A DNA stretch of 64,000 bases from Bythopirellula sp. (GTDB lineage Bacteria; Planctomycetota; Planctomycetia; Pirellulales; Lacipirellulaceae): NCBI GenBank assembly GCA_965216565.1, contig OZ244170.1:608001-672000 (forward strand), in the 5' to 3' direction. Of this stretch, positions 4,973 to 25,026 are shown in pieces; position 1 is the stretch's first letter, and every line of letters begins with the position of its first letter. The translations under genes and the position numbers were made by a program. The notes beneath the pieces are model-generated. The model had not been told where the DNA came from and made no database searches. It was given only the letters and a program-made list of their open reading frames with translations.

Positions 4973-4974
4973 CT

Positions 4975-5620: not shown

Positions 5621-5693
5621 TAGAATAAGAATTAAGGCCGGTTGTTTTGCCCCCATCTCTCGCCTTTTAGAACTGTCAATAACACATAGGTAA

Positions 5694-6104: not shown

Positions 6105-6117
6105 TGTGGGGTGCACT

Positions 6118-8005: not shown

Positions 8006-8289
8006 TGTTGTGATGAATCAACTTTCTGTAGGCAGAATCAAATTGAGAACTGAATAGCACGGCCAGGACATTCCAGATATCGAATTGTAGAGAATCCAAT
8101 CGGTTAACAGCAACTAGTATTCTATATAGCTAGCCACAAGCTAAGGACGAATTGCACCAAAAATTTAGTGAGGGAACCTTAACGCGAATTCGAGACGCCG
8201 AGACCAGATTCCCTGCGATGGGTCTTAATGGACTTTTAGGTCTAACCCTAAATCACTAGGAAGAGGCACTGCCGAAAGCTAGTAGTATG

Positions 8290-8315
8290 TGACGCCATAG
8301 AATGACGCCATAGAA
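8290..8315. repeat. Perfect 13-bp tandem duplication TGACGCCATAGAA x2
   Basis: Read directly in the intergenic region. Confidence 0.8.
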
Positions 8316-8453
8316 ACTGATGGCAATAGTCAGCAATCGCAGAAACACCAAGCTGCCGAAGCATGTATCACTAAGGGTAGATCGGGGGGCAAAGCTCCTT
8401 GAAGCCCAATCTAAGTTCCTCGGGTTGTTGTTTTCGGAAGCGTAGTCGCTTAT

Positions 8454-11327
8454 TCAGATGCCTTGAGGCTTAACGTCTAGCACTGGGTCAACGACCAAAA
8501 TCTCGTTCACTTTGTCTGTGAAAAGACTCTCATAGGGGATCAAGGCAGAAGGTGTGCGGCTATTTTCGTCAAGTTCGCTCAACACGCAGGCTTCGCCGTT
8601 GAGTCGGATCTCTCGCTCCGCTACGTCTTCAAAAGACTGAGCAATACGAACCTGTTTGCCGTGAGCGATTCCCGAAAATTCGAGTGATTGGAAAGGATGC
8701 CACTGGGCAGGAGAGATGCATAAGGAATCTAGACCGGGCTGGAACCCAAAAACATATCGAACTAACAATTTGAGAAGCACATTAGAACAGCCCGTCTGCC
8801 AGTCATTCATGCTTTGACCTTTGAGGTCGAGTTGAGGGTTGTCCACGTAGGAGTTCGGCATCACGAACGTAGAATGGCTTGGCGACTTGTGGTGCGAAGA
8901 AAACGGGAGGATCTTTTCAATCTGTTTCCAAGCCTGATGTGCTTCACCAAGTTTGAATAGTGCAGCAATAGCAAATGTAGTTGCGTGCACATACACAGCC
9001 CCATTCTCGGCCGTACCGCGGGGAAGCTTGGATATGCGGCCAACACCTGGCGCGTCCGAGGCAAAGCCTGGGGCAAAAGTCCTTAGTCCAAACTTGGAAT
9101 CCAGTGATTCGAAAGCCCGTAGAATATCCGCCCTTAACGTGGGGTCTTGATCAAGCATTCCTGATAAAATCCAAAAAGCATTGGAGGTGAGTCCATCACG
9201 CGAAAGTCCATCACTGTCGCAGAAACTACCTACTAGATAGGAACGCTTGTCCCCCCAGCCATGCAAGACTTTTCTTTGCTTGTCCTTCTCGACAATCGCA
9301 TAGTCCAGCAATCCTTGGAGTAATTGTTTTTGGAGCTTTTTATACCGTAGTAAATCGTCGGCGTATGATTCGGAATATGTATGCTGAAGTATATCTATGA
9401 TCTCCGAGCAGCAGTTGTAAAGCTGCAAGCTAGTCATAACGCTGACGCCAGTACCAAATGCCTTGGCGGGATCGCTTGAGATCCCCAAGCCATCGAGTGC
9501 ATCGTTCCAATCGCCATACAAAGCAAATACCAGTCCGGTTTCAGGATCGCAGTTGGCAGCCAGATAGTCCATGATTCGAATCAGATGGTCCAGCACGGAA
9601 TCGATCTCCGCGGACTGAACGATCGTAGCCCCGTCCGTAGGGGATGGGTGGTGGTATCCAACGCGTTGTTTTAGTAATGCCAAGTCTCCAGTCACAGACA
9701 GGTAACTATGCACCGTCGAGATCGCCCAAACTCCTTGGTCAATAAATTCCCGTAAATCAGCCTGGCCGGGATTTCCATTGACCGGTAGTGAATATTGACG
9801 GGGACATCGGCCATCGACCAGAACATGAGCTAAGACTTCGAGTAGCTTCTCTCTGGACTCGTCTGGCTGATCAAGGAGATGTCCTTCGATGGCCTGTAGA
9901 ACATCTCGGAAGCCGATTAACGAATTGGCCGAGGGGTGCATGTAGCCCTTTAGCAGTGCGCACACGGCAACCTGCTTCTTGAGGAAGGGCAGGAATTTGT
10001 TGAAAGTCTTGGCATTTATGTCCAATTGGCTCTTACCTTGAACTTTGAGTTCAAGTTGCCCAGATTGGTGAGCAGTCGATTTGGCAGACGCAAACGCTAA
10101 ATCGACATCGCAGGAAGAGAGCGGTCGATCTAGTTCAATTTCCAACACTTCCAAGCTATCTGGAGTAGAGAAAATATGGTCTCCCCGGAAATAGCAGTTA
10201 GCTGGCAAAGTCATTCGAGCAATGTTTGCCACGACGGCGTTCTCTTTGAAGACCGTCATCGGAACTTCCTGAGCAACTCTACCTGTTTCTAGAAACTCCG
10301 CTGTATTAAGACTGCGTCTAGTCGATCCAATGAGTGCCAAGCGAGAAGTGCATACTTGCGAGTGAATTTCTGTGGCTGCATTTGAAGGGTTTTGTGGACT
10401 GCCATTCTGAGCCTTAATCGATAAAGGTAGGAAAGCTCCAGTAGTTGCATCCCGTATACTCACTGCGCGCCTCAGGAGTGCATAGTTGCTAATCGACTGG
10501 AAACGATCGACGTCTTCGGTAGTCGTAATGACAAATGGTGGCAACACAGCGCCGGCGTCAGGATCACTGACTGCTGTCGCACCGGTTCGGAGTGAAGAGG
10601 TGTCGACATGGATTTTCTTGAACCAGCAGTCTTCATTAGTTTCTACGAATCGATGACGACAGAATGGGTTCATGTATGCTGCTGCAAAGGTTTCTAGAGG
10701 CCCATTGGTCTTGTTTTCAATAAGAACGGAGAATTTGATATGGACATGGTTTGGACGGGATTGATCAACAAAGACACGCACCGCACTCAGTATCTCCGGA
10801 GTCTCAGAAATGAAATAAGTAGCGTCGTGACCGATCACCGTGTAGCGGTCGACTACCTTAGATTCACCACTTTCCACGAAGGGCGTCGGCAATAAAGCAT
10901 GGGATGTGAAGGATGCCTGCCCAACAGGACGTACTCCAGCAAAAAAAGAGATAGGGGGATCTTGACCTTCTTGGGTAGGAAGAAACAAGAAGTAGAGGCC
11001 CTGGTTGCCGTGCATGGCTCCTGAGGCATTTATCCAGAAATTGAAACCTTCCGATCCGTAGGGATAACGGCTATCACCTTGTGTTCGTTCCCTGCACAGA
11101 ACTCGACCGTCCTCTAGAAAGGCCACATTACCCGGCAAACGAGGCGATTGGCCTTCCCTAATGGCAGATTCGCACAAATCTACTTGTTCACGAAGTAGAC
11201 GTACTTGTCCCCGAAACTGCAGTTCTTCAGGAATTGACGTCGAATCGCCTGGCTGGTCGGGCGTGCTTGGTCGTCGGAGGGCATCGAGGTGAGGCATGCT
11301 GTCGATCTTGGTACCAGTTGGATTCAA
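8454..11327 (-). CDS. GH94-family glycoside phosphorylase (cellobiose/laminaribiose phosphorylase-like); alternative ATG 11297
   Basis: GFRDVLQ, GDWNDALD (catalytic Asp), G.SVMTS.Q, ENGAVYVHA, W.TG motifs; no signal peptide. Confidence 0.85.
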   Translation of the reverse strand: MNPTGTKIDSMPHLDALRRPSTPDQPGDSTSIPEELQFRGQVRLLREQVDLCESAIREGQSPRLPGNVAFLEDGRVLCRERTQGDSRYPYGSEGFNFWINASGAMHGNQGLYFLFLPTQEGQDPPISFFAGVRPVGQASFTSHALLPTPFVESGESKVVDRYTVIGHDATYFISETPEILSAVRVFVDQSRPNHVHIKFSVLIENKTNGPLETFAAAYMNPFCRHRFVETNEDCWFKKIHVDTSSLRTGATAVSDPDAGAVLPPFVITTTEDVDRFQSISNYALLRRAVSIRDATTGAFLPLSIKAQNGSPQNPSNAATEIHSQVCTSRLALIGSTRRSLNTAEFLETGRVAQEVPMTVFKENAVVANIARMTLPANCYFRGDHIFSTPDSLEVLEIELDRPLSSCDVDLAFASAKSTAHQSGQLELKVQGKSQLDINAKTFNKFLPFLKKQVAVCALLKGYMHPSANSLIGFRDVLQAIEGHLLDQPDESREKLLEVLAHVLVDGRCPRQYSLPVNGNPGQADLREFIDQGVWAISTVHSYLSVTGDLALLKQRVGYHHPSPTDGATIVQSAEIDSVLDHLIRIMDYLAANCDPETGLVFALYGDWNDALDGLGISSDPAKAFGTGVSVMTSLQLYNCCSEIIDILQHTYSESYADDLLRYKKLQKQLLQGLLDYAIVEKDKQRKVLHGWGDKRSYLVGSFCDSDGLSRDGLTSNAFWILSGMLDQDPTLRADILRAFESLDSKFGLRTFAPGFASDAPGVGRISKLPRGTAENGAVYVHATTFAIAALFKLGEAHQAWKQIEKILPFSSHHKSPSHSTFVMPNSYVDNPQLDLKGQSMNDWQTGCSNVLLKLLVRYVFGFQPGLDSLCISPAQWHPFQSLEFSGIAHGKQVRIAQSFEDVAEREIRLNGEACVLSELDENSRTPSALIPYESLFTDKVNEILVVDPVLDVKPQGI

Positions 11328-11421
11328 TGTATACTGCTATGCAGTTGGCCAGGATCGATGTAAATCCTTACTGCATAATGCATGAGGGCCACATCTGGCC
11401 TGGACTTGCAGTGTTGCAATC

Positions 11422-11450
11422 TTGCGTTACTTCGCATACTTAATTAAGAT
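11422..11450 (+). promoter_or_regulatory. Promoter TTGCGT-N17-TAAGAT overlapped by putative ROK operator (11425-11449)
   Basis: CGTTACTTCGC-ATA-CTTAATTAAGA matches the sites at 19883 and 23071. Confidence 0.7.
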
Positions 11451-11457
11451 ACATTCT

Positions 11458-12591
11458 ATGTCAAATTCCCTAACAGGCAAGCCGCAGCTTAGTCGTTTTG
11501 TCAATCGACGCCTGATTTTGGACAAAATTCGCCGTGATGGGCAAATATCGCGTGCCGAATTGGCAAAGCAAACCTCAATTCGCCCCCCCACGGTCTCCGC
11601 GATTGTTAAGCAGCTAATCGTCGAAGGGCTGGTCGAGGAAATTGGAGCAGGTGAAACTAGTGGCGGCCGTGCCCCGCGCATGATTGCTCTCTCGAGGAAT
11701 CAGCCGCAAGCGCTCGGTTTCGAGATGAGCGAAACTTCGATTCTGGCGGGACTCTACGACCTGGGAGGACGCCTCTGTGCGCACCATCAAGAGCCATTCT
11801 CTCCAGAACCTCCTGAGCAATCCGTAGACCGTCTTTACGAGATCGGAACTCGTTTGCTGAAGGATGTAGATCTCGAATGGCAGAACCTTCAGGGGGTAGG
11901 AGTTGCGATTCCCGGTCATCTAAATATTGCCGAGGGTATAGTTCGCTGGAGTAGTCCCTTTAACTGGCGGGACACACCGTTCAAAGAGCTTTGCGAGCAG
12001 CGGTGGAATGTAACAACCGATGTCGTGAATGATTCACTGGCTGGAGGCATGGCTGCGCATCTCTTTGATACGGCACAAACGGTTAACAACTTGGTGTTTT
12101 TGTATTTGCGATTCCAGGATGAATCACACGGAGTCATCGGACTAGGTACGGGCATTATCACCAACGGCGAGCCCTATCACGGAGAGTTTGGTGCTGCGGG
12201 AGAAATCACGACACCCGTAAAGCACCCACTTCTTCACGCGCGGATACAAGATTCCAGCAGATACGAAACGGTCGAATCTTTCACGCAAGCTGTACAGAGA
12301 GGCGATCAACCGGCGGTTCACGCGATGAAGTGTGTTGCAGATGAGCTTGCCCCGTTAGTCGTGCATATTGTCAATCTGCTTGAACCTGGCGTACTGATGA
12401 TAGGTTCTGATGCCCCTGTGTTACGAGACACGCTTCTCAATCATTGGCAAGATACGGTTGAAGAAAGAAGCCTGCCTTATGAAGCCGGGAAAACTCAACT
12501 GATTCCTTCAACCCTAGGGGAATTCGGAGTTGTCCAAGGAGCAATCGTGCCAACCCTGCAGCGAGTATTTCGTATTCCCCAATGGTCTTAG
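11458..12591 (+). CDS. ROK-family (NagC/XylR-like) transcriptional repressor
   Basis: N-terminal wHTH (NRRLIL..IR..G.ISRAELA..T.I..PTVS.IV..L), GGR.P, GVGVAIPG, G.AGEI; ATG 11458 preferred to TTG 11422. Confidence 0.93.
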   Translation: MSNSLTGKPQLSRFVNRRLILDKIRRDGQISRAELAKQTSIRPPTVSAIVKQLIVEGLVEEIGAGETSGGRAPRMIALSRNQPQALGFEMSETSILAGLYDLGGRLCAHHQEPFSPEPPEQSVDRLYEIGTRLLKDVDLEWQNLQGVGVAIPGHLNIAEGIVRWSSPFNWRDTPFKELCEQRWNVTTDVVNDSLAGGMAAHLFDTAQTVNNLVFLYLRFQDESHGVIGLGTGIITNGEPYHGEFGAAGEITTPVKHPLLHARIQDSSRYETVESFTQAVQRGDQPAVHAMKCVADELAPLVVHIVNLLEPGVLMIGSDAPVLRDTLLNHWQDTVEERSLPYEAGKTQLIPSTLGEFGVVQGAIVPTLQRVFRIPQWS

Positions 12592-12664
12592 AATTGTGGG
12601 GCCTTGAGGTTGTGGGTCCAGTGCCTCCAGCGAACCATCTTTGCTCTCGCGGAGATTCTACCAA

Positions 12665-14161
12665 ATGTCGTTTCATCCATTACCAGTCGCAGGAGTGCTT
12701 TGTTGCATTTTCAGCAGTGTGGCTGCTTCTTCAGACGGCAGATATGAAATGCCGATCGCAAACTTCGGCTTTGACCTAAGAACTAGCCAGGGAGGCTTCT
12801 ATCGAGCGATTGGGGGACGGCCCACAGAAGTTTCGGATAGATTTGTTGCAATAGGTAAGTCACAACGTCCAGCTTGGCGAGTTGATCTAGCCAACGAGGC
12901 CCCTAGGCAACAGGCTGGGGCGATCGTTCCTCTTTTTGACAATGCTTTGAAGAAGCCGTCTCTTGTCAATCTTCAAACAGGCGATCAACTGGTTGGCCAA
13001 TTTGCCGGGGATTTGGGCAAGCGAAAGCTTCAAGTCGAGTTCTTGTTTTCGACTGACCCCGAAACCCGGGGAATACCCATCGGCACGATTCCCGCTAGAC
13101 AGCTTCACGCTACCAAGTGGAAGACTATCAAGCTTCCCATCTCTGTTGAAGCAAGAAAGCAACGGGCAACGTTTCTGCGTTTCACAGCCGAAGGTCCAGG
13201 GGAGTGTTGGTTTGCGATCAACACGCTGAAACTAGTATCTCGCGGTTCAGCAACCGAGGGCCTCAAGGCAGCGAGGAGCAAGCCACAAGAAAAGACACTT
13301 CGTAAAGCACTGTGGCACTGGCATACTATGGAAACTCTACCAGATAAAGAGCAGTCAATTGCTTTGCTAGAACTGTGCCAGGCTCAGCGAATTACCGATC
13401 TCTACTGTCAGGTGCCATACTCTTACGAAGATGAAAAAGTTGAGCTTCATCTGGTCGAACAGCAGCGCGAGTTCAATTCGGCAGCGTTAGAGCGTGGCAT
13501 TGCGGTACACGTTCTTGATGGCGACCCCAGCTTCATCTTTCAACGCAATCATTCTCGAGTAATTCGATTGGTCGAAGCCATCGAGGATTTCAACAGACAC
13601 TCAGTGCCCCGTGAACGCTACCGAGGTATTCATTTAGACAACGAGCCCCATGTGCTGAAAGAATGGCAGGACGACCAACAGCGTAGTGATCTCATTTACC
13701 AGTATATTCAATTGAACCGACAGCTTAGCCATATGACTAAGAGTTTGGATATGGACTACGGGGTCGACATTCCGTTCTGGTGGGATGCCCATGATTCGGA
13801 AGGACGAGCTCGGTTTACTTATGATTCAGACTCCAGGAAGCAGCCTATTCTGGAAGTGCTGTTTCCTTTGTTAGATAACGTGGGTGTCATGTCTTATCGA
13901 GATCGAGTAACGGGCCCCAATGGTGTAGTCGCCCATTGTCTCGGAGAATTTGAATTAGGAGAGCGGCTTGGCACTGCGGTCTTTGCATCTGTCGAGTTGG
14001 GAGTGGGGCCTGATGTTGAGCCCGGCACGACGTTTGGCGTTCACCCTTGGCGGTACTTCCGAGGACAGCTGGATTCTCTAGAGCGGATATTGGCTCATTC
14101 ACCCGGCTGTGCCGGTTTGGCAATTCACCACGCCCAGCCATTCGCTGAGGCAATGAAGTAG
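12665..14161 (+). CDS. Secreted protein: beta-sandwich (CBM-like) domain plus putative TIM-barrel glycoside hydrolase-like domain
   Basis: Signal-like N-terminus; GIHLDNEPH, DIPFWW, VMSYRD, SVE strand-end acidic motifs. Confidence 0.55.
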   Translation: MSFHPLPVAGVLCCIFSSVAASSDGRYEMPIANFGFDLRTSQGGFYRAIGGRPTEVSDRFVAIGKSQRPAWRVDLANEAPRQQAGAIVPLFDNALKKPSLVNLQTGDQLVGQFAGDLGKRKLQVEFLFSTDPETRGIPIGTIPARQLHATKWKTIKLPISVEARKQRATFLRFTAEGPGECWFAINTLKLVSRGSATEGLKAARSKPQEKTLRKALWHWHTMETLPDKEQSIALLELCQAQRITDLYCQVPYSYEDEKVELHLVEQQREFNSAALERGIAVHVLDGDPSFIFQRNHSRVIRLVEAIEDFNRHSVPRERYRGIHLDNEPHVLKEWQDDQQRSDLIYQYIQLNRQLSHMTKSLDMDYGVDIPFWWDAHDSEGRARFTYDSDSRKQPILEVLFPLLDNVGVMSYRDRVTGPNGVVAHCLGEFELGERLGTAVFASVELGVGPDVEPGTTFGVHPWRYFRGQLDSLERILAHSPGCAGLAIHHAQPFAEAMK

Positions 14162-14169
14162 GGCGTCCT

Positions 14170-16653
14170 TCAGCTCTCGGCCTCGGTATCAATGCTTGTC
14201 CAGTCCATCGAGCCAATCAGGCGGAAGAGAATGGCGGTCGCTACGACACCGTATGCGGCAAAGCCTGCCGCCGGAATATATTGGCCAAAGCACAAGTGAC
14301 CAAGGGAAAAGATCATTGAAAATAGACCGGTGACGCCAAGGCACCACGCGCACCACTCTCTCCAGCCCACAACCAGACAATCTGGATGACCAGCCAACGC
14401 AGGGATAGGCCCCCAGGCACCTGCTGGTCGGACACGCTTGTAGAATTTTACCAGATGGTCCGTCTGCTCGGGGCCGGTAAGAAATGTAACGCATAGCCAC
14501 ACGACTGAGGTAACAACCAAGTTTACCGTAAAGCGAACCGCATACTCGTCTAACCAATACTCAGGCATTCCCAAATAGCCAAGCAGAGAATGAAAGATCG
14601 AAGTCGTACGCAGCAATGTGAATACCGTCAGAGACGACAGCATGGCAGAGATCTCTGTCCAGGCATTGATTCGCCACCAGTACCAACGCAGTGGGATGAC
14701 AATTCCCGCTCCAGACATCAATTCAAAATAGATGATCCACTGATCGCCAATCGAGCTGGCATAGAATGCCGAGATACCAGCAATCAGTGCTAAGCCACAC
14801 GAAGCCAGCTGAGAGACTCTCACTAAGGTCTTGTCGCTACTATTCGGATGGATGAATCGCTTGTAGAGATCGTTGACCACATACGAGGCACCGAAGTTTA
14901 CATGCGTGGAAATTGTCGACATGTAAGCCGCCATCAACGCTGCAACCATCAGCCCTTTGAGTCCCACCGGCAAGTACTTCATAAGCATGATCACGTAGGC
15001 ATGTTCTTGGTCAAAGTGAGGCGAGTATGCAGTTACATTGGGAACCAAAAAAAGTGACGCAATTCCTACCACGATCCAGGGCCAGGGCCGGAGAACGAAC
15101 ATGGCGAAGTTGTACCACAGCATGGCCAGCACTGAATGCCATTCGTTCTTGCATGAGAAAATGCGCTGAGCGAGAAACCCGTCGCCCGCACCACCTGCCC
15201 ACCACTGCAAACTGATAAAGACGATAAAGGCCCAGACGGCAAGGAAACCAGCTTCTAAATCGAACGGGGGCAGGAAGCTTGTGATCTTCTTGGCCGAAAG
15301 CACCTGATCGTTCCGCCAAACAGCCATAATCTCTCCAGCATCTTTCACGCCTGCGGTGCGTACACGCTCAAGCAGTTGGCTATCCGTCAATGCTAGTGTG
15401 GCAAAACGATAACGGCTGGTCGAAGTTTCTGCCTCTGATACCTGGTCCTCAAACAGAATTCTTGCCCGGAGTAATTCCTGGCGAATTTGCTCGTCTGTGA
15501 GTCGAGACTTGCTGAAAGTGTAAGCCTGCTTCCAGATTTCAAGAACTGCAGCGTGCTGCGAGGGAGAAAGAGCTAATTGATCAAGTCGGTCAGAAACTTC
15601 GTCACCCGTCAGCCCATCGACGTTCCAAATGAGCGAATTGTCCGTCGGGACAGAATTGGTGGGTATGAATAGGTCACTCGCGACCAATTGTTCCACAACC
15701 TCACTGGCAGAGTGCTCCTCCAAAGGCTGATCTTGCCCCTCATTTTGTCGCTGCCTTATCGCTAATGCTGCGACAAGTCCAGCTTGGGATACGACATCCC
15801 GTTTCACTGCTGTTCGATTCTTGACAACGCCACTTTCGACAGCTTCGGTAGCCTCCTGAACCATGTTGGCAGGTCCGCCAGCTACTCTTAAGACAACCCC
15901 CATGAGAATCACAGTAGCCGCCATGGCAAAAAAGAACTGAAAGAAATCAGTCGCCATAACCCCCCACAGACCAGCGATTGTGGTGTAGGCGGCGGCCACA
16001 CCGAAACAGATCAATATCCCAGTTGCCTTGGCTGAAATAATCGCAGTCCCGAGAACCGGCCAGACAGCAATGGAATCTATAGGGATCACTGAAGTAACGG
16101 TAACGCCTTTTGCAACAATTTCCGGAAGCCATTGGTTCTTTAGGAAAACAAGAGTGGGAATATCGAGTGTCACGTCAAGGATCTTCGTCATCGCTAGCGT
16201 GACCCAGCCCATTGTTAGCGTGTTGCGAATGAGCGAGATGAAGCTGGCTTGAAATATCCTCAGCCCTGCTGCCGGCTTACCAGCATAGCGCAGCTCGTTG
16301 AATTCCTGATCGGTGAGCACACGGGCACGACGCCACAGCCTGGCAAAAAAGAAGGTGCAGAGCATGAAGCCCATGATTCCTCCCCACCAAAACCAGTTTT
16401 GCTGCAGGCCGATAGTTCGGGACCAGCCTGAGATAACAAGCGGAGTATCCGCGGCAAAGCTAGTGGCTACCATCGAAGTGCCGGCGACCCACCAAGTCAT
16501 CTTTCTGCCGGCTACAAAGTAATCAGAGACGCTACTGACGGCACGTCGAGAAAAGAAGAAACCGATCATCAAGGTGATCAGAAAAAAGACGCCAATAACG
16601 ATCCAATCCCACGTAGCAAGAGGATCGAGTATGTGCATTGCCGAGCCATCCAA
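14170..16653 (-). CDS. Sodium:solute symporter (SSS) with a large soluble insertion
   Basis: DYFVAGR, SMVATSFAADTP, GLWGVMATD, AQRIFS, AAYMST, VNDLY motifs. Confidence 0.92.
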   Translation of the reverse strand: MDGSAMHILDPLATWDWIVIGVFFLITLMIGFFFSRRAVSSVSDYFVAGRKMTWWVAGTSMVATSFAADTPLVISGWSRTIGLQQNWFWWGGIMGFMLCTFFFARLWRRARVLTDQEFNELRYAGKPAAGLRIFQASFISLIRNTLTMGWVTLAMTKILDVTLDIPTLVFLKNQWLPEIVAKGVTVTSVIPIDSIAVWPVLGTAIISAKATGILICFGVAAAYTTIAGLWGVMATDFFQFFFAMAATVILMGVVLRVAGGPANMVQEATEAVESGVVKNRTAVKRDVVSQAGLVAALAIRQRQNEGQDQPLEEHSASEVVEQLVASDLFIPTNSVPTDNSLIWNVDGLTGDEVSDRLDQLALSPSQHAAVLEIWKQAYTFSKSRLTDEQIRQELLRARILFEDQVSEAETSTSRYRFATLALTDSQLLERVRTAGVKDAGEIMAVWRNDQVLSAKKITSFLPPFDLEAGFLAVWAFIVFISLQWWAGGAGDGFLAQRIFSCKNEWHSVLAMLWYNFAMFVLRPWPWIVVGIASLFLVPNVTAYSPHFDQEHAYVIMLMKYLPVGLKGLMVAALMAAYMSTISTHVNFGASYVVNDLYKRFIHPNSSDKTLVRVSQLASCGLALIAGISAFYASSIGDQWIIYFELMSGAGIVIPLRWYWWRINAWTEISAMLSSLTVFTLLRTTSIFHSLLGYLGMPEYWLDEYAVRFTVNLVVTSVVWLCVTFLTGPEQTDHLVKFYKRVRPAGAWGPIPALAGHPDCLVVGWREWCAWCLGVTGLFSMIFSLGHLCFGQYIPAAGFAAYGVVATAILFRLIGSMDWTSIDTEAES

Positions 16654-16808
16654 GAAAGGTAGTTCGCTAGAAGGCGTGAGTTAAATTGCTACCTAGACTA
16701 TAGACTTGCAACACAAGATTCGTAAGTGAGTGGTCCAGGGTGGAATTTATCCATTGCGTGATACTATTGTCTCGAACCGAGGGCGACGTGCCGTGCGGCC
16801 TAGTTTTA

Positions 16809-17291
16809 CTAGTTTTTCACAAAAAGCTCGGCTGCCTCTTCAGCGCTCATCTCGTGAATGCCGCCACGAACCCGCACTGCGTAGATTCTCCCATCGACTC
16901 CCTGTTGTTCGAACGCCGCGTACGGAGAGCCTGATGCGTCATCTGCAGAAACAACCTCTCCGCTCACAATGACGAGAGGACGGTTATCTCGATACGAATC
17001 GTAGAGTTGGTCGGGATTTTCCACATTGTACAGTCTTAGCTCATCGGCTCGTGATTCTAGAAAACGATAAAAGTCTTGATTGTCCTTGGGCGGCCTGCCT
17101 TTATGTGTATTTAAGTAAGCACCATAAAACTCGCCGACGATACCTAAGATAGCTCGCGTCATTCGGTCGTTATCATTGGGCTCTGGTTTGCTAGTGCCAC
17201 AGCCTACAGCGAACAAGACGAGTAGCGAGGTGAGCAATCTAGTAGAACGCCAAGTGCCGGTCTCAAGAATTGAGCTTTTGAAATCTGACAT
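16809..17291 (-). CDS. Lipoprotein, DUF1559-associated
   Basis: Lipobox LFAVGC after an h-region; ATG at 17291; directly downstream of the DUF1559 gene. Confidence 0.7.
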   Translation of the reverse strand: MSDFKSSILETGTWRSTRLLTSLLVLFAVGCGTSKPEPNDNDRMTRAILGIVGEFYGAYLNTHKGRPPKDNQDFYRFLESRADELRLYNVENPDQLYDSYRDNRPLVIVSGEVVSADDASGSPYAAFEQQGVDGRIYAVRVRGGIHEMSAEEAAELFVKN

Positions 17292-17331
17292 TATTAATAT
17301 GGTCACTAGTTTGTGGAGTGTTTTGGATAGA

Positions 17332-18486
17332 TCAATCGTTGGCAAGCAATTCCCCGCCGTTCCGAGTGCCCATGCCATTGAAGATAAGCACATCAACGTC
17401 GAAAGAAATCACTCTTACCGATCCGTCGGCGAACACGGCATTGATCCCACTAGGATGCGATGAGCCAAAGAAATACACATCCCCAGATGCACCAGTGCAG
17501 TACTTGTTATCTGGACCCGTCAGACTCTCGTCGAGGCAGATTCCGGTGTCGCCATCGCTGATTGGCTGATACCCGGTAAAGCGAACTGTGTCTGGGTCCC
17601 AGCCATCGGTCCAGCCACGATCATCTGAGTAGCTTGTTGTCCCGTCGGGAGCCACCGTATCGGTCATGTCGAAACGTACATATTTCTCGCTGATGAGCAG
17701 GGTATTACTCAGGCCATCGGTCACGTTGGCAGGTTTTGTGGGCGAGGGGCCTTCGAAATTAACTTGATCTAACTCGGCGGGACTAGTATTCGAAGCTGCA
17801 AACTTGACGCGGTAGGAAGTACGGACGATTACACCATCGTATACATAGACAAAAGTTTCGAAGGGCAACAAATCTGGTGTCGGCTTGGTACACCAGTACG
17901 CCTTTTCAGCTTCTGCATGAGAATTAGCGGTATAAGGGTGAGTTACGTTAAGATCGTACCGCGAGACACCATCGTAGTCTTGTCCACACTGCAAGCTGAG
18001 GGGATGCGCTGAAGCATAGTCGCAGAGCGCTGCAACTGGACCTCCAACGACAGGGGTGTCAGCCACAGTGGGTGCGCGACGCGATGGACAGAAATAGAGA
18101 GGGATTACAGTTCGCTGAATATCTGCTTGGGTGAGGATTCCTTTCACGGCTCCCTGCTCCAAGTACGGCAATATCTGGTAGGCCCATCCTAGTCCTTGTC
18201 TCTTCGGCCCGTTGGGCGTTCCTGGATTGTCTTTGCCGCCTGATACGTAGTTGCTCAGCAAAGGGTTGTAAGTGCTACCGCCAGTAGGAAATACGTCCAA
18301 GGCATCGACATGATTCTGAATCGCTAAGCCGATTTGCTTGACTTTGTTCATGCAACTCACACGCCGAGCCGCCTCACGCGCCGACTGCACAGCCGGAAGA
18401 AGTAAGGCAACCAAAACACCAATGATTGCGATCACAACTAGCAATTCGACAAGCGTGAACGCGTTAGTCTTTTTCCTATGATGCAT
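17332..18486 (-). CDS. DUF1559 prepilin-type N-terminal cleavage/methylation protein
   Basis: AFTLVELLVVIAIIGVLVALLLPAVQSAREAARR..C; FCPS; DGLSNT; H-x9-DG motif (HPSGINAVFADGSV); upstream ATGs at 18519/18609 possible. Confidence 0.93.
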   Translation of the reverse strand: MHHRKKTNAFTLVELLVVIAIIGVLVALLLPAVQSAREAARRVSCMNKVKQIGLAIQNHVDALDVFPTGGSTYNPLLSNYVSGGKDNPGTPNGPKRQGLGWAYQILPYLEQGAVKGILTQADIQRTVIPLYFCPSRRAPTVADTPVVGGPVAALCDYASAHPLSLQCGQDYDGVSRYDLNVTHPYTANSHAEAEKAYWCTKPTPDLLPFETFVYVYDGVIVRTSYRVKFAASNTSPAELDQVNFEGPSPTKPANVTDGLSNTLLISEKYVRFDMTDTVAPDGTTSYSDDRGWTDGWDPDTVRFTGYQPISDGDTGICLDESLTGPDNKYCTGASGDVYFFGSSHPSGINAVFADGSVRVISFDVDVLIFNGMGTRNGGELLAND

Positions 18487-18763
18487 AAGGGCAAGTCGAA
18501 TTCGCCGGGAGCTGCTCATGCTTCGTTCGTGCGCTGCGTTTTCAAAGGCGAGTATTCGGTGCCTGTTGAAGTGGCAGGAACAGAGAAGATTTGTCATAGC
18601 CGTATTCATGTGTCACTCGCGAATGAAGGCAGTCGTGTTTTCAATAAAACTCTGGCCGAGAAAGTGATTTGGCTTTGTCAATTGACTCAATGTCCCTACA
18701 GGTAGGATCGAGTTGCGACGGTGCCGGGCTGCCCCATACGGCACTGTTGTTTCCAAGAGTTTC

Positions 18764-19707
18764 TTAACAAACACGACGTAACGGACTGTTGACTATTACA
18801 AATAAGCAGATCCCCAACAAACATGTAGAAGGTTCAGGAACACTCGTAGAGCCAGCCACGCTTGCGGGTAGAATTCCGATAATGTTGTCGAATTCAAGAC
18901 GACCGAGGCCATTACTCCAGTCTGCGATGGGGGCGTCGGTGGCATACTGACTCTCCCAGACACTCAAATCACCAGAACCAACGATCCCATCCAGATTGGC
19001 GTTGCCGCTGGCAAAAGGAATTGCAAAGCCACCGTCAAATGTGCCGTGATTCTGCTGCCATGTCAGGAAATCCAATCCGTCGACACTGGAACTGGCATCG
19101 AAGTCACCGCTATGAAACTTAACCGGAGGTGCTGAGTCGGGATCGACGTCCCCCGTCAACATAAGCATCTTGATTTGGGCCGCGTTGCGCGGGTTGCCTT
19201 CTAAGAAGTCATCGAACATGACTGTGTAGGTTTGGAATTCCTCGGTTAGCATTACAGGCTCATCATAAAGATCACTGCAAGCGTTCATCGATGTCCCGCA
19301 GGCGTCATTAGTATCCCACTGCAACCCGAACTTAATTGGTGACAAACCCGTAAAGACCTCATTGTTAGGATCGTCCGGGTCGATGTCTCGGATAAACCTG
19401 GCATCAATCGAGTATCCGACGTAGGGCGTCAGATCGATGGTGGTGGGGAAGAAGAAGGACCAACTTCGCCAATACCAAAGTCGTTAGGGCTGGTCGAATT
19501 CTCGGTGAAGTTTCCCGTATGTGAAGCACAGACGTTTCCGAGTGTGTCGCAATCAGGGATCAGGCCGCTGTCTGTCGTGATGTTCCCAAAATGTAAGAAG
19601 TCGTCGATGGCAGACTGGAAATCGAACAGTACGGTTTGCCCCTGGACCAGCGATCCTGTAACAACGGTCAGTACAACTGCGCCAAACAGTCTTGAACATG
19701 AATGCAT
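18764..19707 (-). pseudogene. PEP-CTERM surface protein (CBM-like + dockerin/EF-hand-like repeat) split by a frameshift near 19432-19460
   Basis: ORF 19429..19707 has the signal peptide; the adjacent frame continues IDLTPYVGYSIDARF... into ORF 18764..19345 ending VPEP-TM-RR; both halves align with one domain of the 23287 protein. Confidence 0.8.
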
Positions 19708-19882
19708 TGAGCTGCTCCTGGTCAGGAAGAAATTATGAGGCAGAGACTAACGACAACTTCGGTGTCTTTCTCAATTAGCATTCAACGCTCGATCGCGAAG
19801 AAGGCGTCCTCAAAAAAAGTACACGTGGTGCAGTTACCTGGGGCCAATACGCTGCAAATGCAAGGAAAAAGGGCCTTCAGTA

Positions 19883-19923
19883 AGTTACTTAGGCATCTTA
19901 ATTAAGTAGGATGAGGAATGCAA
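19883..19923 (-). promoter_or_regulatory. Promoter TTGCAT-N17-TAAGAT overlapped by putative ROK operator (19883-19907)
   Basis: AGTTACTTAGG-CAT-CTTAATTAAGT; -35 at 19923-19918, -10 at 19900-19895. Confidence 0.72.
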
Positions 19924-20032
19924 TACTATTGCTCTCGCTTTTTGAGAATTCTCATTTCCACGCTGAAATACATGATCTTGTCTTCTCGAGTCTTGGTAGT
20001 TCGAGTACGAAGGGCTAGTCGCTGCGCCCGTT

Positions 20033-22009
20033 CTAAGCCCATGTAGCCCCAGCGAGTCTGGCGTGCTCATTGGCTCGGGCAGGGTCCGAGCATCGGTACA
20101 GAGAAGCCAGTTGCTCATGAGATGCGGCCGGCTCGTGCCCCATCGATAGGCTATTCTCAAAGGCAGCGATTGCCTCTTGCTCACGCTCTAGCCCACGGAG
20201 GGCGACCCCTAAGTGGAAGTGGGCGTCAGGAAAATAGTGCTGAAGTCCAACAGCCTCTAAGGCTAGTTCGGCGGCTTCCTGGAATTGGTATCGCTCGTTT
20301 AGAATTTGCGCTAGTCCAGCCATCGCCCATGGGTTTTCTTCGTAGAGTTCCATGGACCGCTGGAAAACGATCTCTGCCTGATCCCAGCATTCAAGCTCAG
20401 TCAGTAGTCGACCTAGCCGATTGATCATTCCTAAATCTGCTAATCCCGAACTAAGAATTGCTGATGCCGTTTGCAAGGCTGCCTCGCTATCTCCGCGAGC
20501 GTGGGCAATCCGAGCCAGTAAGTACTGGACATCGACCGTGCCGAGGAGTTCTTCTGGCAGCATCGCGATCGTCTGCTCACACTCGTCAAACTGACCCTTG
20601 CTGCAATAGAGAGAAGCCAAACGACATTTGTACGATTGCTCCTGCGGATTCTCCTCGATCAATGTTTGCAACAGCGGGATCGCTTTTTCTGCCCGGTGGC
20701 TCGTTGAGAGGGCTCTTACCAAGTTATGTCGTTGATCAAGTAGGCACTTTCGAACGGCTTCTTCGGCATCTTCCCCAGGTGCCTCGATATATCCTAAATC
20801 GACGAGATGTTTAATGGCTTCGGCAGACTCAGCTGGATCTTCACGTACCTCCACGGGGTGCATGCCAGAGTCTCCGTCCTGCTCATCCCATGACGGGATA
20901 ATTTCAACAGTCTGCGGCACATCAAAGATCTCGACCCAGGGTCGTCCATCCATGTCTTTTCCTACTGGAAGACCGAGGAGTGTCAGAATGGTCGGAGTTA
21001 CATCTAATACCGTTGCCCCGTACAGAGGCTCGCCACTCTTGATGCCAGGACCGGCCAGACAAGCGATTCCATGATGACGATGCCATCCTGTGGGGTTGTC
21101 CATACCGTCCGCACTTGGACGTAAGTCATCATTCTTGAATCCGTGGTCACTGATTAAGATCACGGTTGTGTCAGGGCCCGCCAGTTGAAGTTGGGTACCG
21201 AGCATCATGTCGTGAAATCGGTAGCAATTCTCCATGACCTCGCCGAAGATGGCTACGTCTTGCTTTGAAACGCCTTCCAACTGAGGAGGACGGTAAGGCA
21301 TGAAAGTATGCCCAAACTCGTCGATGCCAATGAAGTAAACGGCAGTCAAATCCCAATCGTCGTTTTTGTGAAGCAGATGAGTCGCTGCGGCCTGAACTGT
21401 TGCTGTGCGGGCTATCAGACCTGCAAGCTTTCTAAGTCGATCATCGTCTTGCTGTGGCACCTCACCAGCTTTAGGGACAAATGGTAGGATGGCATCGGCT
21501 TCAATTTGGCCAATGCCGACGATCAACCGAGACATCTCTTCTGCCAAAGACTCCGGGTGAAAAGTTCCGGTCGGACAATCGTAGATGTTCTCGCCAGCAA
21601 CGGTTTGGGCGACAAAGCGATCGGTGACGATCGATCCCTTGATTGGTTCGGCTGGATGGCTAGCAAACCAGGAAACCACTTGCGAAGTCAAATCAGACTG
21701 CGTCAATATGTTCCACAGTGCTTTACACTTCCTTGAGGTACTAGTCACGGGACGAACACCCGTTCGATCTGGTTTCGGTTCTATGAAACCGTAGATCCCA
21801 TGTTTGTCGGCACGTTTCCCAGTGGCAATCGAATTCCACAGCATGGGAGATAATATCGGTTGAATCGTCGCAAGATTCCCAGATACACCCCGATCCATCA
21901 GTCCCTGAAGATTCGGAAGCTTCCCCTGTGCCAGTAGTGGGCGAATCATCTGCCAGTCGGCCCCATCCCAGCCGATCAACAAGATCTTTTTTGCTAACCG
22001 ATGACCCAT
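20033..22009 (-). CDS. Alkaline phosphatase superfamily (NPP/type I phosphodiesterase-like) protein with C-terminal TPRs
   Basis: IGWDGADW, P.LSP..W.SIATG, D..GH, SDHGF, L..LGYI, followed by about 6 TPR-like repeats; no signal peptide. Confidence 0.88.
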   Translation of the reverse strand: MGHRLAKKILLIGWDGADWQMIRPLLAQGKLPNLQGLMDRGVSGNLATIQPILSPMLWNSIATGKRADKHGIYGFIEPKPDRTGVRPVTSTSRKCKALWNILTQSDLTSQVVSWFASHPAEPIKGSIVTDRFVAQTVAGENIYDCPTGTFHPESLAEEMSRLIVGIGQIEADAILPFVPKAGEVPQQDDDRLRKLAGLIARTATVQAAATHLLHKNDDWDLTAVYFIGIDEFGHTFMPYRPPQLEGVSKQDVAIFGEVMENCYRFHDMMLGTQLQLAGPDTTVILISDHGFKNDDLRPSADGMDNPTGWHRHHGIACLAGPGIKSGEPLYGATVLDVTPTILTLLGLPVGKDMDGRPWVEIFDVPQTVEIIPSWDEQDGDSGMHPVEVREDPAESAEAIKHLVDLGYIEAPGEDAEEAVRKCLLDQRHNLVRALSTSHRAEKAIPLLQTLIEENPQEQSYKCRLASLYCSKGQFDECEQTIAMLPEELLGTVDVQYLLARIAHARGDSEAALQTASAILSSGLADLGMINRLGRLLTELECWDQAEIVFQRSMELYEENPWAMAGLAQILNERYQFQEAAELALEAVGLQHYFPDAHFHLGVALRGLEREQEAIAAFENSLSMGHEPAASHEQLASLYRCSDPARANEHARLAGATWA

Positions 22010-22033
22010 AGCCTGTGTCTCGAAGTGAAGAAA

Positions 22034-22061
22034 GAGGAGCGTTCCCCTTGGAACGCTCCTC
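22034..22061 (-). terminator. Perfect 12-bp stem-loop between the PEP-CTERM gene and the AlkP-TPR gene
   Basis: GAGGAGCGTTCC-CCTT-GGAACGCTCCTC; followed by TTTCTT on the minus strand. Confidence 0.7.
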
Positions 22062-22099
22062 CCCGAATATCGTCTTAATAAAATCTAACCATTCTTGGC

Positions 22100-22915
22100 T
22101 TAAATCGACGTTCGCCGACGACGCGCGAGGCCCAGTCCTCCACATCCTGCAGCTAACAGAGCCAAACTACTTGGTTCCGGTACACCTGCTGGAATCGGCG
22201 TATTGGGTATCATCTCGAACGCGAATTCCGTTAGAGTTGCACTCCAGAATCCCGGTGGGTTCGGAGCAGTGCTGGGTGGGTTCACATCGATTTGCGCCCA
22301 GCCATACTTCACGTCGCCTGTGCCATCGAAATCCCATTGGAGTCCAACGAACATGCTCGTATTTATCTTGTTGTATGCGGTATAGGCACCACGGGCACCT
22401 ACATCTGCATAAAACGTGGGCGACATCGTCGCACGGCTAATCAAGAAGTTTGAAGGTACCGACTCGACGTAGTAGCCAGGATTAGGATCAGCAGGAGCAA
22501 CTGAACCTGGATTACCAAAGAGGGACAACACCTGATTGCCTTCACCTGCACCCGGGACAGAGGGAGCGGCAATGGGGGCGCCTACCAAACCAACGTGTGC
22601 TCCTCGTTCGTCGCCGACGATTCCCGCGAGCGGTCGAGGCGAAACGCGAATCTGGTTTTGTGCTCCGGGAGCAATGATCGTAAATTCCGGCGCGCCACCG
22701 TCTGGATTGATGTCGATGAACTGCGAAGTGCCGCTGAGATTGTTCGTGATGGTCACATCCGGTACGTCATAGACTCGAATGGCACCATGAGCTGCCGTCG
22801 TACACGCGAATGCACCCAGACCAGCAGCTGATGAGTAGTATTGAAGTTTTCGGAGAAACTTTTGTCTGCGTTCGTTGGCGCTCTCACTGCGCGTGTTGTT
22901 TCTGGCACGTTTCAT
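22100..22915 (-). CDS. PEP-CTERM sorting-domain protein with extended N-terminal leader
   Basis: VPEPSSLALLAAG...RRRR tail; FVGL...YGW....FAFE..P..PI.AG region; GGAG RBS upstream. Confidence 0.88.
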   Translation of the reverse strand: MKRARNNTRSESANERRQKFLRKLQYYSSAAGLGAFACTTAAHGAIRVYDVPDVTITNNLSGTSQFIDINPDGGAPEFTIIAPGAQNQIRVSPRPLAGIVGDERGAHVGLVGAPIAAPSVPGAGEGNQVLSLFGNPGSVAPADPNPGYYVESVPSNFLISRATMSPTFYADVGARGAYTAYNKINTSMFVGLQWDFDGTGDVKYGWAQIDVNPPSTAPNPPGFWSATLTEFAFEMIPNTPIPAGVPEPSSLALLAAGCGGLGLARRRRTSI

Positions 22916-23070
22916 TAGTCACTCGCTCCCATAGGTTGTTTGGCTTCGGAAAGATTCTGCAAAACCACAATAGGCATCAACTCTTGTCGATTAACCTTCG
23001 ATTGGCCTACTTCTGTCCGCGATTGGGCGAGAGAGCTCATCCATATTCACTATAAATAAAGCCCCTCTTG

Positions 23071-23111
23071 ACTTATGTAAGTATCTTAATAAAGTATCAT
23101 TATGTAAGCAA
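23071..23111 (-). promoter_or_regulatory. Promoter TTGCTT-N17-TAAGAT overlapped by putative ROK operator (23071-23095)
   Basis: ACTTATGTAAG-TAT-CTTAATAAAGT; -35 at 23111-23106, -10 at 23088-23083. Confidence 0.72.
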
Positions 23112-23286
23112 GCTATTTCTTTCTATTTTTTAAATGTCTTTTTGATGCGGCTTACGGGCTCGCGAATTTAGCCTGGAATAATCGTGGTATATCGATCCGA
23201 TCGGTATCAATTGGACGATTGTGTAGGGCCGCAATTCCACGACAGATGAGCAGGCTCGTGGCCGTCGACAAAGACTCGGGATGTAG

Positions 23287-24909
23287 ATGCCAGGTACTAA
23301 GAACACCATGAGATGCACCGTGGAGAATTATCGAAACGCTCCTCTTCCGATCTGTCTTTTCGTTCCCGCTACGGCTCTCCTGGTACTCTGCGCCTTTTTC
23401 GACGGGACTAATCTATCTGCCGCGAGCTTAGATTTCGCCGGCAGGACTTGGAACATCAAGCAATCGAATACGCCCGTAGGCCCGGGGCCGAACCATTTTT
23501 CCGATAGCCCTAACGATGTGTGGTCCGATCAGGAAGGCCTTCACCTAACGATTCAACAAACGGGTGGCATATGGAATAGTACTGAGGTGATACTCGATGA
23601 AAGTCTTGGTTATGGGACTTATATGTTCCAGACGAAAACCCGACAGGACATATTGGACGCCAATGCAGTATTTGGTGCGTTTACCTGGGATTCCTTCGGT
23701 GGCAGTCCAATACCAAATAGTCCTAACCGAGAAATTGATTTTGAAGACTCTCGATTCGGAAATCCCCTTGCGACGACGAACTCTCAATTCGTTGTGCAAC
23801 CCTTCGACGTTGCCGGAAATCTGCAAAAGGTGACACTGCCAGACCTGAGCCAAGACTCTAACTTAACGCGTTTCTTTACTTGGTCTCCTGGTGAGGTAGA
23901 GTTCACAGCATTGAAGGGCCATTACTTGCCAGGCAGCTATCCCCAGAGCGCCGTCATTCAGCAGTTTACTTATCTAGACGACGGCGGTAACCATCGCGTA
24001 CCGATCCCAGATCGAGAGAACTTCCGTTTCAACTTGTGGCTTTTCGAGAGTAGCTCCCCAGCTAGTGCTGCGCCTGTAGAAGTGATAGTAAATGATTTTC
24101 AGTTCTTTCCCTTACCACCATCGAATGACGAACTGCTATTTGATTTTGAAACTGGTAGCCAAGGTTGGGGGTCGTTTGGTGCCATAACGCTAGCCAGTGG
24201 TGAACTCCCCACAGGCGGATCGGAGGGGCAGGGCAGGTTTCATTCCGGCGACTTCAGCCAGCCCGACGCAGGCAATTTTGGCATCGTCGACGTTTCTCCT
24301 GCTGGTCTAGATCTATCTAGCTACGTTGGATTATCCGTAGATGCTCTATTCAGAGACGTTCCTGGACAACCACCTTTCGTGGGGATAAAGGAGCTAGACA
24401 TTATCATCGAAACCTCATCGGCAGAGGAATTCTTTGCCCCGAAAGTCACGATGACCGACGACTTCGGTACCTTTGCAGTGGCCTTCGAAGATTTTCAGAG
24501 TGGGGCAACTTCACTTCCTCCAACACCGACCGATTTGAGCGACGCGTCAATCAAGCTTGTCGTGTTGAATGAGAATGGCACGGGGACTGCTGAACTAATC
24601 TACGACGAAATCTATGGGTTGCACTCCATAAACAATGCTGACTTCGATGCCAATGCTATTGTAGACGGGCTTGATTTCCTTGCCTGGCAAACGGGATTTG
24701 GCAAAGGCAACACGCATAGCCAGGGCGATGCAAATAGCAGCAGGACCGTTGATAGCGCGGATCGATTGCTCTGGGAGAGTCAATACGGCACACCGGGCGG
24801 CAATTTGTTGAGCAGTGTAACAACAGTCCCTGAGCCATCCAGTCTGGTCATTGCCTGTACGGTGCTACTGAGTGTGATTGGTCCGGGCGCTTGCCGACAA
24901 ATCTTCTAG
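23287..24909 (+). CDS. GH16-like glycoside hydrolase + CBM-like domain + dockerin-like repeat + PEP-CTERM
   Basis: GPGPN, LHLTI, GYGTY.F, EIDFE (GH16 ExDxE); ADFDANAIVDGLDFLAWQ; VPEP. Confidence 0.8.
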   Translation: MPGTKNTMRCTVENYRNAPLPICLFVPATALLVLCAFFDGTNLSAASLDFAGRTWNIKQSNTPVGPGPNHFSDSPNDVWSDQEGLHLTIQQTGGIWNSTEVILDESLGYGTYMFQTKTRQDILDANAVFGAFTWDSFGGSPIPNSPNREIDFEDSRFGNPLATTNSQFVVQPFDVAGNLQKVTLPDLSQDSNLTRFFTWSPGEVEFTALKGHYLPGSYPQSAVIQQFTYLDDGGNHRVPIPDRENFRFNLWLFESSSPASAAPVEVIVNDFQFFPLPPSNDELLFDFETGSQGWGSFGAITLASGELPTGGSEGQGRFHSGDFSQPDAGNFGIVDVSPAGLDLSSYVGLSVDALFRDVPGQPPFVGIKELDIIIETSSAEEFFAPKVTMTDDFGTFAVAFEDFQSGATSLPPTPTDLSDASIKLVVLNENGTGTAELIYDEIYGLHSINNADFDANAIVDGLDFLAWQTGFGKGNTHSQGDANSSRTVDSADRLLWESQYGTPGGNLLSSVTTVPEPSSLVIACTVLLSVIGPGACRQIF

Positions 24910-25026
24910 TAGAACACAAAGTCAACTTGGAAGATCAGGTCGGACTGGGCCACTGCGGGAGTCAGCTCAAGTTATTGTCCGTGACTAAACTCAAAGGGTT
25001 CCGCTAGCGGCAGAATCTTGCCGGCT

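Follow-up and report, generated by a model that had tools for sequence, protein, structure and literature searches.

The 64,000-nucleotide stretch of Bythopirellula sp. DNA considered here (the window; C1:608001-672000 of a single-contig genome of 5.21 Mb) carries, between positions 8454 and 24909, ten genes that appear to serve the use of a glycan. One of them encodes a putative repressor of the ROK family, and around it lie genes for a GH94-like phosphorylase, an unclassified barrel protein, a sodium:solute symporter (SSS), a small lipoprotein-like protein, a DUF1559 protein, two PEP-CTERM proteins, an AlkP-TPR protein and a GH16-like protein. Three 25-bp sites, O1 to O3, accompany these genes. 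Sequence comparison suggests, with a probability of about 0.88, that the ROK protein is an autoregulated repressor, which acts via O1-O3 on the ten-gene locus. In the following, G000 denotes this genome, and other G and L numbers denote the family genomes and orthologous loci compared with it.

Operator sites and promoters

An earlier note on this DNA had claimed three 25-bp imperfect palindromes at 11425, 19883 and 23071, each overlapping a promoter of the form TTGCnT-N17-TAAGAT; all three palindromes are present, and the promoter form matches at 11422(+), 19923(-) and 23111(-). O1 (11425..11449) lies between the -35 and the -10 of the predicted ROK promoter TTGCGT-N17-TAAGAT (11422..11450, forward strand) and overlaps the -10, which ends 7 nt before the ATG at 11458. 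O2 (19883..19907) covers the -10 and the predicted start of the PEP-CTERM/DUF1559/lipoprotein/SSS operon, for which the promoter TTGCAT-N17-TAAGAT (19895..19923, reverse strand) is predicted. O3 (23071..23095) is common to two divergent predicted promoters, TTGCTT-N17-TAAGAT (23083..23111, reverse strand) toward the PEP-CTERM and AlkP-TPR genes and TTGACT-N16-TAAAGT (23068..23095, forward strand) toward the GH16-like gene. The latter had been proposed from TTGACT at 23068, which is paired with TAAAGT at a 16-nt spacing. Self-complementary positions number 10/25 in O1 and 16/25 in both O2 and O3, so that O1 is essentially one perfect half-site with a weak one. The 10-mer CTTAATTAAG has two occurrences in the genome, at O1 and O2.

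Close orthologues of the ROK protein were found in 9 of 119 other family genomes, in 10 further genome records and at 7 metagenome loci, four of which were new and long enough to be kept. The orthologue of the closest record, from the Lacipirellulaceae, is 74% identical, and more distant ones come from Phycisphaerae and other Planctomycetota records. Duplicates (L049, L050, L124, L125), a locus that was too short (L128) and two nagB fragments (L112, L113) were left out before counts were made. A symmetric matrix was seeded with 16 orthologous ROK upstream 25-mers, G000, G011, G129 and L060 being excluded from the seed. The whole-genome matrix scan covered this genome alone, and the other genomes were covered by an IUPAC pattern search.

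The orthologue-only matrix ranks the site at 19883 first in the genome (28.2 bits), that at 11425 second (24.5 bits) and that at 23071 third (22.3 bits), the next unrelated match scoring 16.4 bits. The inspection of orthologous upstream regions and the genome scan that had been advised in the earlier note thus place the three sites at ranks 1-3, and the ranking of O2 and O3 is an independent test, because the training used ROK promoters only. The refined matrix, iterated on 19 other loci to yield 31 non-window sites, scores O2 at 29.9 bits, the best in the genome, O1 at 23.1 bits and O3 at 21.9 bits; the next match in the genome reaches 17.9 bits. None of 30 column-permuted matrices gives three sites of at least 21.9 bits, while 4/30 give one, with a top score of 24.3 bits. 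The leave-one-out ranks of O1, O2 and O3 over 5.2 million positions are 6, 2 and 3, respectively, which indicates that the motif is not frequent genome-wide regardless of context.

The refined consensus is ACTTAATTAAG-N3-CTTAATTAAGT. At least 16 bits are reached by 34 sites across 19 of 20 loci, none of them within a supported gene. Among these, AA at +5,+6 is present in 31 and TT at -6,-5 in 24, and C or G occupies -11 in 27 and +11 in 25. The window sites display TT and AA at ±5,6 in O1 and O2, GT and AA in O3, and C/G at ±11 at both ends in all three. The arrangement TTG-N-CTTAATTAAGAT-N7-ATG is found upstream of most ROK orthologues, and the placement of O1, ending 8 nt before the ATG, is kept in most of them. 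The O2 footprint is kept in all four orthologous intergenic regions, and the -10 half of O3 in both of its orthologous regions, the other half being weaker in G020. In addition, an extra complete site, away from the -10, lies some 30 bp upstream in six Phycisphaerae loci.

The half-sites are themselves near-palindromic with a 13-bp period, so that O2 and O3 each have a second, shifted frame scoring 15-16 bits, and some promoters have the look of a triple half-site (23071-23108 and 19883-19920 in the window; L123, L237, G069). An alternative register of O1 (11438) was rejected at 9.9 bits as compared to 23.1, as was a near-consensus with 7 mismatches at 27470 (<8 bits). Distal members of the regulon in this genome were also rejected, the candidates of 17.9, 17.6 and 16.0 bits lying by unrelated genes or in open reading frames and within the range of the permuted matrices.

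The word TTGCnT-N17-TAAGAT has four matches in the 5.2-Mb genome. The fourth, at 51895-51923 (forward strand) upstream of a DUF1598 gene at 52007, has an operator score of -7.5 bits and was rejected as an operator site. Genome-wide, the operator accompanies 3/16 words of the form TTG-N3-N17-TAAGAT and 3/1139 of the form TTG-N3-N17-TAnnnT. A generic sigma-70 scan of 7000-26900 returned 11 sites against 17.1 expected, and the three TAAGAT promoters were not among them; the promoter calls therefore rest on orthologue conservation and not on consensus score. With respect to the -10, the second half-site lies upstream at the ROK promoter and downstream at the target promoters. Toward the GH94-like gene, a promoter had been placed at TTGACA (11464-11459); this proposal is not upheld, as the hexamer is present but is not followed by a proper -10 at a spacing of 16-18 nt. 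TTGCCT-N16-TAGAAT (11453..11480, reverse strand), with a predicted start near 11446, inside O1, may be the better candidate; its -10, TAnnnT, recurs in 7 of the 10 orthologues that were inspected, and its -35 is forced by Gly-Lys codons.

In 21 of 24 loci, exactly 7 nt separate the end of the ROK -10 (TAnnnT) from the ATG, the spacer being 17 nt in 17 of them and 18 nt in 4; in one more locus the distance is 8 nt. A Shine-Dalgarno-like word before the ATG is found in none of the 24. This arrangement predicts a leaderless ROK transcript. Promoter-like words genome-wide show a modest peak at 6-7 nt before the ATG (12 and 8 as compared to 0-7 elsewhere), from which leaderless genes would be a small class in this planctomycete. 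A TTG/TAnnnT promoter that ends 6-7 nt from the ATG precedes about 20 long open reading frames of G000, as compared to about three per other offset.

Assignment of the sites to the ROK protein

The ROK gene (11458..12591, forward strand) encodes 377 residues with a winged helix-turn-helix (HTH), a TSGGRAP linker and a ROK domain without the zinc motif, and its Pfam matches to HTH_24/MarR and ROK are above cut-off. The protein matches solved ROK repressors over its full length, the nearest being Listeria Lmo0178 (PDB 5F7P/5F7Q/5F7R; expectation value (E) 1e-20). This relative is distant; the alignment with it takes in the HTH and the ROK domain and leaves out the middle part of the effector domain. 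After the HTH, 18 of 20 orthologues have the linker GGRxPR, and the remaining two have RGR and TGR. The kinase ATP motif DxGxT (residues 81-100), the zinc motif CxCGxxGCxE/D and the sugar-binding His of GExGH were each found in 0/20 orthologues. By these sequence features the protein is a zinc-free variant clade, still placed among the ROK repressors by its HTH, fold and linker. A NagC orthologue was rejected, as NCBIfam NF047937 gives 98.2 bits against a cut-off of 650 and a nagB site is present in 1/10 ROK genomes; the protein is also far below the Mlc cut-off.

In two planctomycete classes the sites are found next to this same repressor gene, and for this reason they are likely ROK operators. 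They also follow the targets: a site is present before the PEP-CTERM/AlkP pair in the rearranged loci of G067, G069 and G114, sites lie around the SSS and DUF1559 genes in G041, and in G001, where the targets are on three other contigs, sites precede PEP-CTERM (20.4 bits), DUF1559 (24.2 bits) and GH16-like (17.4 bits) genes. In G071, G119 and G126 (91-96% complete), in which the ROK gene was not found, the PEP-CTERM/AlkP/GH16 module scores at most 2.6-3.8 bits over 12-14 kb, and all nine GH16-like homologues in ROK-less genomes score ≤3.3 bits. The IUPAC pattern with at most two mismatches has 7 matches; they are spread over 4 of the 10 ROK genomes, and the 110 others have none. Sequence footprinting, co-movement, the negative-control genomes and the ROK operator grammar agree with the claim of the earlier note that one ROK repressor binds the sites.

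The assignment has been made from sequence, ROK operators resemble one another according to the part of PMC4288165 that treats them, and the genome encodes one other HTH-ROK protein (C1:1265036-1266200; L002). An unlinked factor such as this paralogue might hence bind the sites, the neighbouring ROK gene being merely a target. This is improbable, as the strong sites are confined to genomes with this ROK orthologue and the orthologous loci have no further regulator in common. Moreover, the paralogue has a different helix, an intact zinc motif and an Mlc-type RGRP linker, which in Mlc is paired with A/T at ±11, whereas the present sites have mostly C/G there. Three further ROK proteins of this genome are without an HTH.

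A conserved AT-rich strong promoter, with an extended -10 or a special sigma factor site and no repressor, would explain why the best-conserved half holds the -10 and why the second half of O1 is weak, and the training sites did come from promoters. However, the conserved second half is found upstream of the -10 at some promoters and downstream of it at others, and the operator is missing at 13 of the 16 promoters with the same -10 and all but absent from the 1139 generic ones. The extra Phycisphaerae site is off the -10, and orthologous modules without the ROK gene have no site, which makes a pure promoter motif very improbable. ROK factors may activate or repress, as stated in part of PMC9599254, but an activator is scarcely credible here, since each of the three sites lies on the -10 or between the hexamers, and a protein bound at such a position would block the access of polymerase.

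Some observations weigh against a ROK regulon acting through these sites. O1 by itself is a poor palindrome (10/25) with a leave-one-out rank of 6, and the ROK promoter layout is not standard in G011 and G129. In G129 the ROK gene is present, yet the PEP-CTERM/AlkP/GH16 module is without a site (2.0 bits), and L060 has no site of at least 16 bits, reaching 12.7 bits with the orthologue-only matrix. With three mismatches, the IUPAC pattern is found in 8/10 ROK genomes as compared to 17/110 non-ROK genomes, and the pattern contrast is partly circular, because the pattern was built from ROK-locus sites. In six of these 17 ROK-less genomes, the single match scores 17-22 bits; lone sites in this range, that before the short nagB gene of G020 included, are therefore not safe. 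The relatives are also not independent, L051-L054 being close.

By the tested sequence features, the system works like the ROK repressor-operator systems and belongs to them as a zinc-free clade. The operators of NagC, Mlc and XylR have TT/AA at ±5,6 in common, and those of NagC and XylR mostly carry C/G at ±11, which is recognised by a linker of the glycine type (PMC4288165, in its account of these operators). Escherichia coli NagC/Mlc and Bacillus XylR resemble the present system in the quasi-palindrome, in TT/AA at ±5,6 and in the G-G-R linker after the HTH, and C/G at ±11 is shared with NagC and XylR. In contrast to the same account, the linker here is TSGGRAP and not STGGRR, the zinc motif is missing, and the half-sites are near-palindromic themselves, one serving as the -10. 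The XylR of the Clostridium acetobutylicum group has a 25-bp inverted repeat, ACTTattAAAnnnnnTTTaaAAAgt, of equal length and with like outer ACTT...AAGT ends, whereas the inner bases differ here (PMC2873477, in the part on this motif). Xylose pathway genes, xylA/xylB included, were not found among the conserved neighbours or site-bearing genes examined, and a Firmicutes XylR regulon was rejected, xylA/xylB not being among the targets examined.

ChiR and other local ROK regulons of Thermotoga are likewise local, autoregulated sugar regulons of hydrolases, a transporter and intracellular enzymes, and His280 is replaced here as in ChiR and ManR. As far as the relevant part of PMC3553997 describes them, the Thermotoga regulons have 23-bp motifs, ABC transporters and a zinc motif that is largely conserved, not universal, whereas the present one combines 25-bp sites with an SSS transporter and with genes for PEP-CTERM and DUF1559 proteins, and its regulator is devoid of the zinc motif. 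NagR of Bifidobacterium, a ROK repressor of N-acetylglucosamine (GlcNAc)-glycan use, has its operators on promoter elements, as is the case here, and an effector of it, GlcNAc-1P, is a possible GH94 product. The NagR regulon, in the portion of PMC9599254 concerned, has a nagA/nagB/nagK core, whereas here nagB joins by a site in one genome and by gene order in one.

In the mechanism proposed for the ROK regulon, a ROK dimer would bind ACTTAATTAAG-N3-CTTAATTAAGT, and with one half-site doubling as the -10 (TAAGAT), its binding would exclude RNA polymerase. The ROK gene would have a weaker site between its -35 and -10, and the two target promoters would be covered from the -10 to about +12. Until a glycan-derived sugar releases it, the repressor would shut down its own promoter, predicted to be leaderless, and as many as four predicted promoters of the ten-gene locus. 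The PEP-CTERM surface proteins, the GH16-like and barrel enzymes and the DUF1559 protein may capture and cut the glycan, the SSS transporter may import the oligomers and the GH94-like enzyme may phosphorolyse them, an oligomer or a product of glycan breakdown being the presumed inducer.

Genes and extent of the regulon

The GH94-like phosphorylase gene (8454..11327, reverse strand; Pfam PF17167; possible start ATG 11298) is divergent from the ROK gene and adjoins it in 19/22 loci, the gene presence counts (n=22) being bounded by the limited length of the orthologous loci. As judged from sequence clustering, the protein is a member of its own, uncharacterised clade of 70 clusters at ≥33% identity, followed by a gap to 23-26%; one member of the clade is recorded from Adhaeretor mobilis. 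Its catalytic motifs are intact, GDWND being invariant and ENG-x-x-Y-x-H conserved. The clade is present in 9/120 family genomes, and all nine carry this ROK gene.

The gene that starts 50 nt after the ROK gene (12641..14161, forward strand; 13/22 loci) encodes a secreted-looking, glycoside-hydrolase-like but unclassified protein of 506 residues with a beta-sandwich and a (beta/alpha)8 barrel, for which no Pfam match, GH18 included, was found. Its structure model has a predicted local distance difference test (pLDDT) score of 93.8. The best fold match is Cwp19 (Z 20.9, root-mean-square deviation (rmsd) 3.8, 257 aligned), and a GH18 chitinase (Z 18.5, rmsd 3.6, 239 aligned) ties with GH5 mannanases at 18.5. 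The GH18 catalytic motif DxDxE lies on strand 4 of the (beta/alpha)8 barrel. H-x-D-x-E-P and M-x-Y of the barrel protein, invariant in 32/32 sequences, resemble GH18 motifs; D-x-E, which is D305/E307 in the numbering of the alignment, is kept, and the position of the first Asp of GH18 is His. PDB 10YV (Cellulomonas fimi) is a sequence relative (E 1e-10) that shares LDxEP, and its depositors' label, putative GH97, may be wrong.

The SSS gene (14170..16653, reverse strand; 15/22 loci) has a long internal insertion; the protein is about 820 residues long here and in G020, G114, L122 and L123, and about 600 in the Phycisphaerae loci. Upstream of it lie the genes for the small lipoprotein-like protein (16809..17396, reverse strand; 4/22 loci), whose lipobox-like Cys was read from the sequence, and for the prepilin-type DUF1559 protein (17332..18609, reverse strand; 6/22 loci by a strict cut-off). 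An operator within 1.5 kb was found for 1/22 DUF1559-like genes of this genome, the one in the window, and DUF1559 genes with a nearby site are also present in G001, G011, G020 and G041.

The PEP-CTERM gene that opens this operon (18764..19707, reverse strand; about 314 residues) is broken in the assembly by an error of one base near 19456; it starts at 19707, and its 3' part appears as the 193-residue open reading frame at 18764. The extra base occurs in all four public runs (one sample, possibly the window's source), and the orthologues are intact. A pseudogene was ruled out on these grounds in favour of an assembly error, and O2 therefore sits 176 nt upstream of an intact PEP-CTERM gene.

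The AlkP-TPR gene (20033..22009, reverse strand), in which Pfam detects an AlkP-superfamily phosphodiesterase-like domain and TPR, and the second PEP-CTERM gene (22100..22915, reverse strand; 271 residues, domain match) form a recurrent module (20033-22915), the AlkP-like domain being present in 50/120 family genomes. In G020 and G067, a small gene that reads from sequence as a sulfotransferase is added to this pair. The GH16-like gene (23287..24909, forward strand; 13/22 loci) encodes 540 residues with a GH16-fold glycanase-like domain (EIDFE) and a PEP-CTERM-like tail, as assigned by profile and model. The profile matches lichenases at E 1e-6, below Pfam detection, and a single-sequence PDB search with the domain returned nothing real. 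The model (pLDDT 94.5) has its best Foldseek matches among GH16 beta-glucanases, with a template modelling (TM) score of 0.65 and identities of 10-22%. Its ExDxE residues, E105, D107 and E109, are invariant across 39 sequences.

One sugar-sensing repressor had been thought to control most of the island. The single ROK repressor is supported, and the extent is too wide if 25-38 kb is included, because all window positions other than O1-O3 and their 13-bp-shifted frames stay below 11 bits, and the chondroitinase-B-like gene at 25027 occurs in 0/22 orthologous loci. A regulon of ten genes, 8454-24909, and not the whole island is thus the best reading. Distal sites were seen in other genomes, before another lipoprotein/DUF1559 pair (25.9 bits, L240:3984; G020:C19), an unknown secreted protein (24.5 bits, L165:1499; G041) and a GH141/SSS/GH57 cluster (19.3 bits, L099:7365; G041).

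The candidate glycan

Given the regulon, the odds that its substrate is an N-acetylhexosamine-containing glycan are about even. The barrel protein is closest to Cwp19 and GH18 and has the invariant D-x-E and M-x-Y. The His of GExGH is also replaced in chitobiose-sensing ChiR and mannose-sensing ManR of Thermotoga (PMC3553997, in the part on these regulators), and its loss in 20/20 orthologues therefore favours an amino sugar. In G020, a 26.5-bit site lies 14 nt before a long nagB gene and an 18.6-bit site before a short one, and in L055 a long nagB gene abuts the GH94 3' end. The short nagB gene of G020 (L166:3695-8666; C24) is followed, behind its 18.6-bit site, by an HMGL-like enzyme and a DUF4954/DUF6819 run.

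Other results speak against the amino sugar. A site accompanies 2/21 nagB-like matches in the 10 ROK genomes, both in G020. The fold of the GH16-like protein is nearest to beta-glucanases, GH5 mannanases tie with GH18 in the barrel fold search, and the best GH94 profile is that of cellobionic acid phosphorylase, chitobiose phosphorylase being 8th. In this genome nagB was rejected as a target, with scores of -0.8 and 12.2 bits.

A beta-glucan (laminarin, mixed-linkage glucan or cellodextrin), with a gluco-oligosaccharide as the inducer of the same ROK regulon, is a tentative but sizeable alternative. The GH16-like domain is nearest to lichenases and laminarinases, glucoside phosphorylases top the GH94 profile matches, and nagB is without a site in 9/10 ROK genomes. 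GH94 enzymes produce glucose-1-P or GlcNAc-1-P, and most of those characterised release glucose-1-phosphate, as reported in part of PMC8950772. Against this stand the low GH16 identities of just 10-22%, the nagB links in G020 and L055 and the GH18/Cwp19-like barrel in 13/22 loci; moreover, the glucose-sensing ROK proteins of Thermotoga retain the His that is lost in this clade (PMC3553997, same part). A substrate that is neither an amino sugar nor a beta-glucan is unlikely.

The switch itself would be of a textbook kind, and its value lies in the handle that it offers in a phylum with few known regulons. No planctomycete ROK regulon was found in the literature searched, subscription journals, RegPrecise and supplements lying outside that search. 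It is possible, at somewhat less than even odds, that Planctomycetia and Phycisphaerae share a conserved regulon for an N-acetylhexosamine glycan, controlled by an autoregulated ROK clade with leaderless genes and no zinc motif, and that this regulon takes in DUF1559 and PEP-CTERM proteins, a GH94 enzyme of new specificity and a barrel protein of a new glycosidase family. DUF1559 proteins are the largest paralogue group of Planctopirus limnophila, with a function described as not known in the relevant part of PMC10632474, and the operator singles out one of 22 such paralogues here. If the regulon is real, it would be the first regulatory evidence in the literature searched for a DUF1559 protein serving the uptake of a defined glycan, and the repressor-operator pair would provide a native inducible promoter for planctomycetes. 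Knowing the ligand of the repressor would give a lead on the substrate of the GH94 clade, of the unclassified barrel glycosidase and of the GH16-like family, which has thousands of members. The regulon would further place surface proteins and enzymes of which little is understood under a single sugar signal.

Elsewhere in the window, 123-6567 holds genes for NrfD, a molybdopterin oxidoreductase and NapB-like cytochromes, followed by a globin-looking open reading frame and a hemerythrin.

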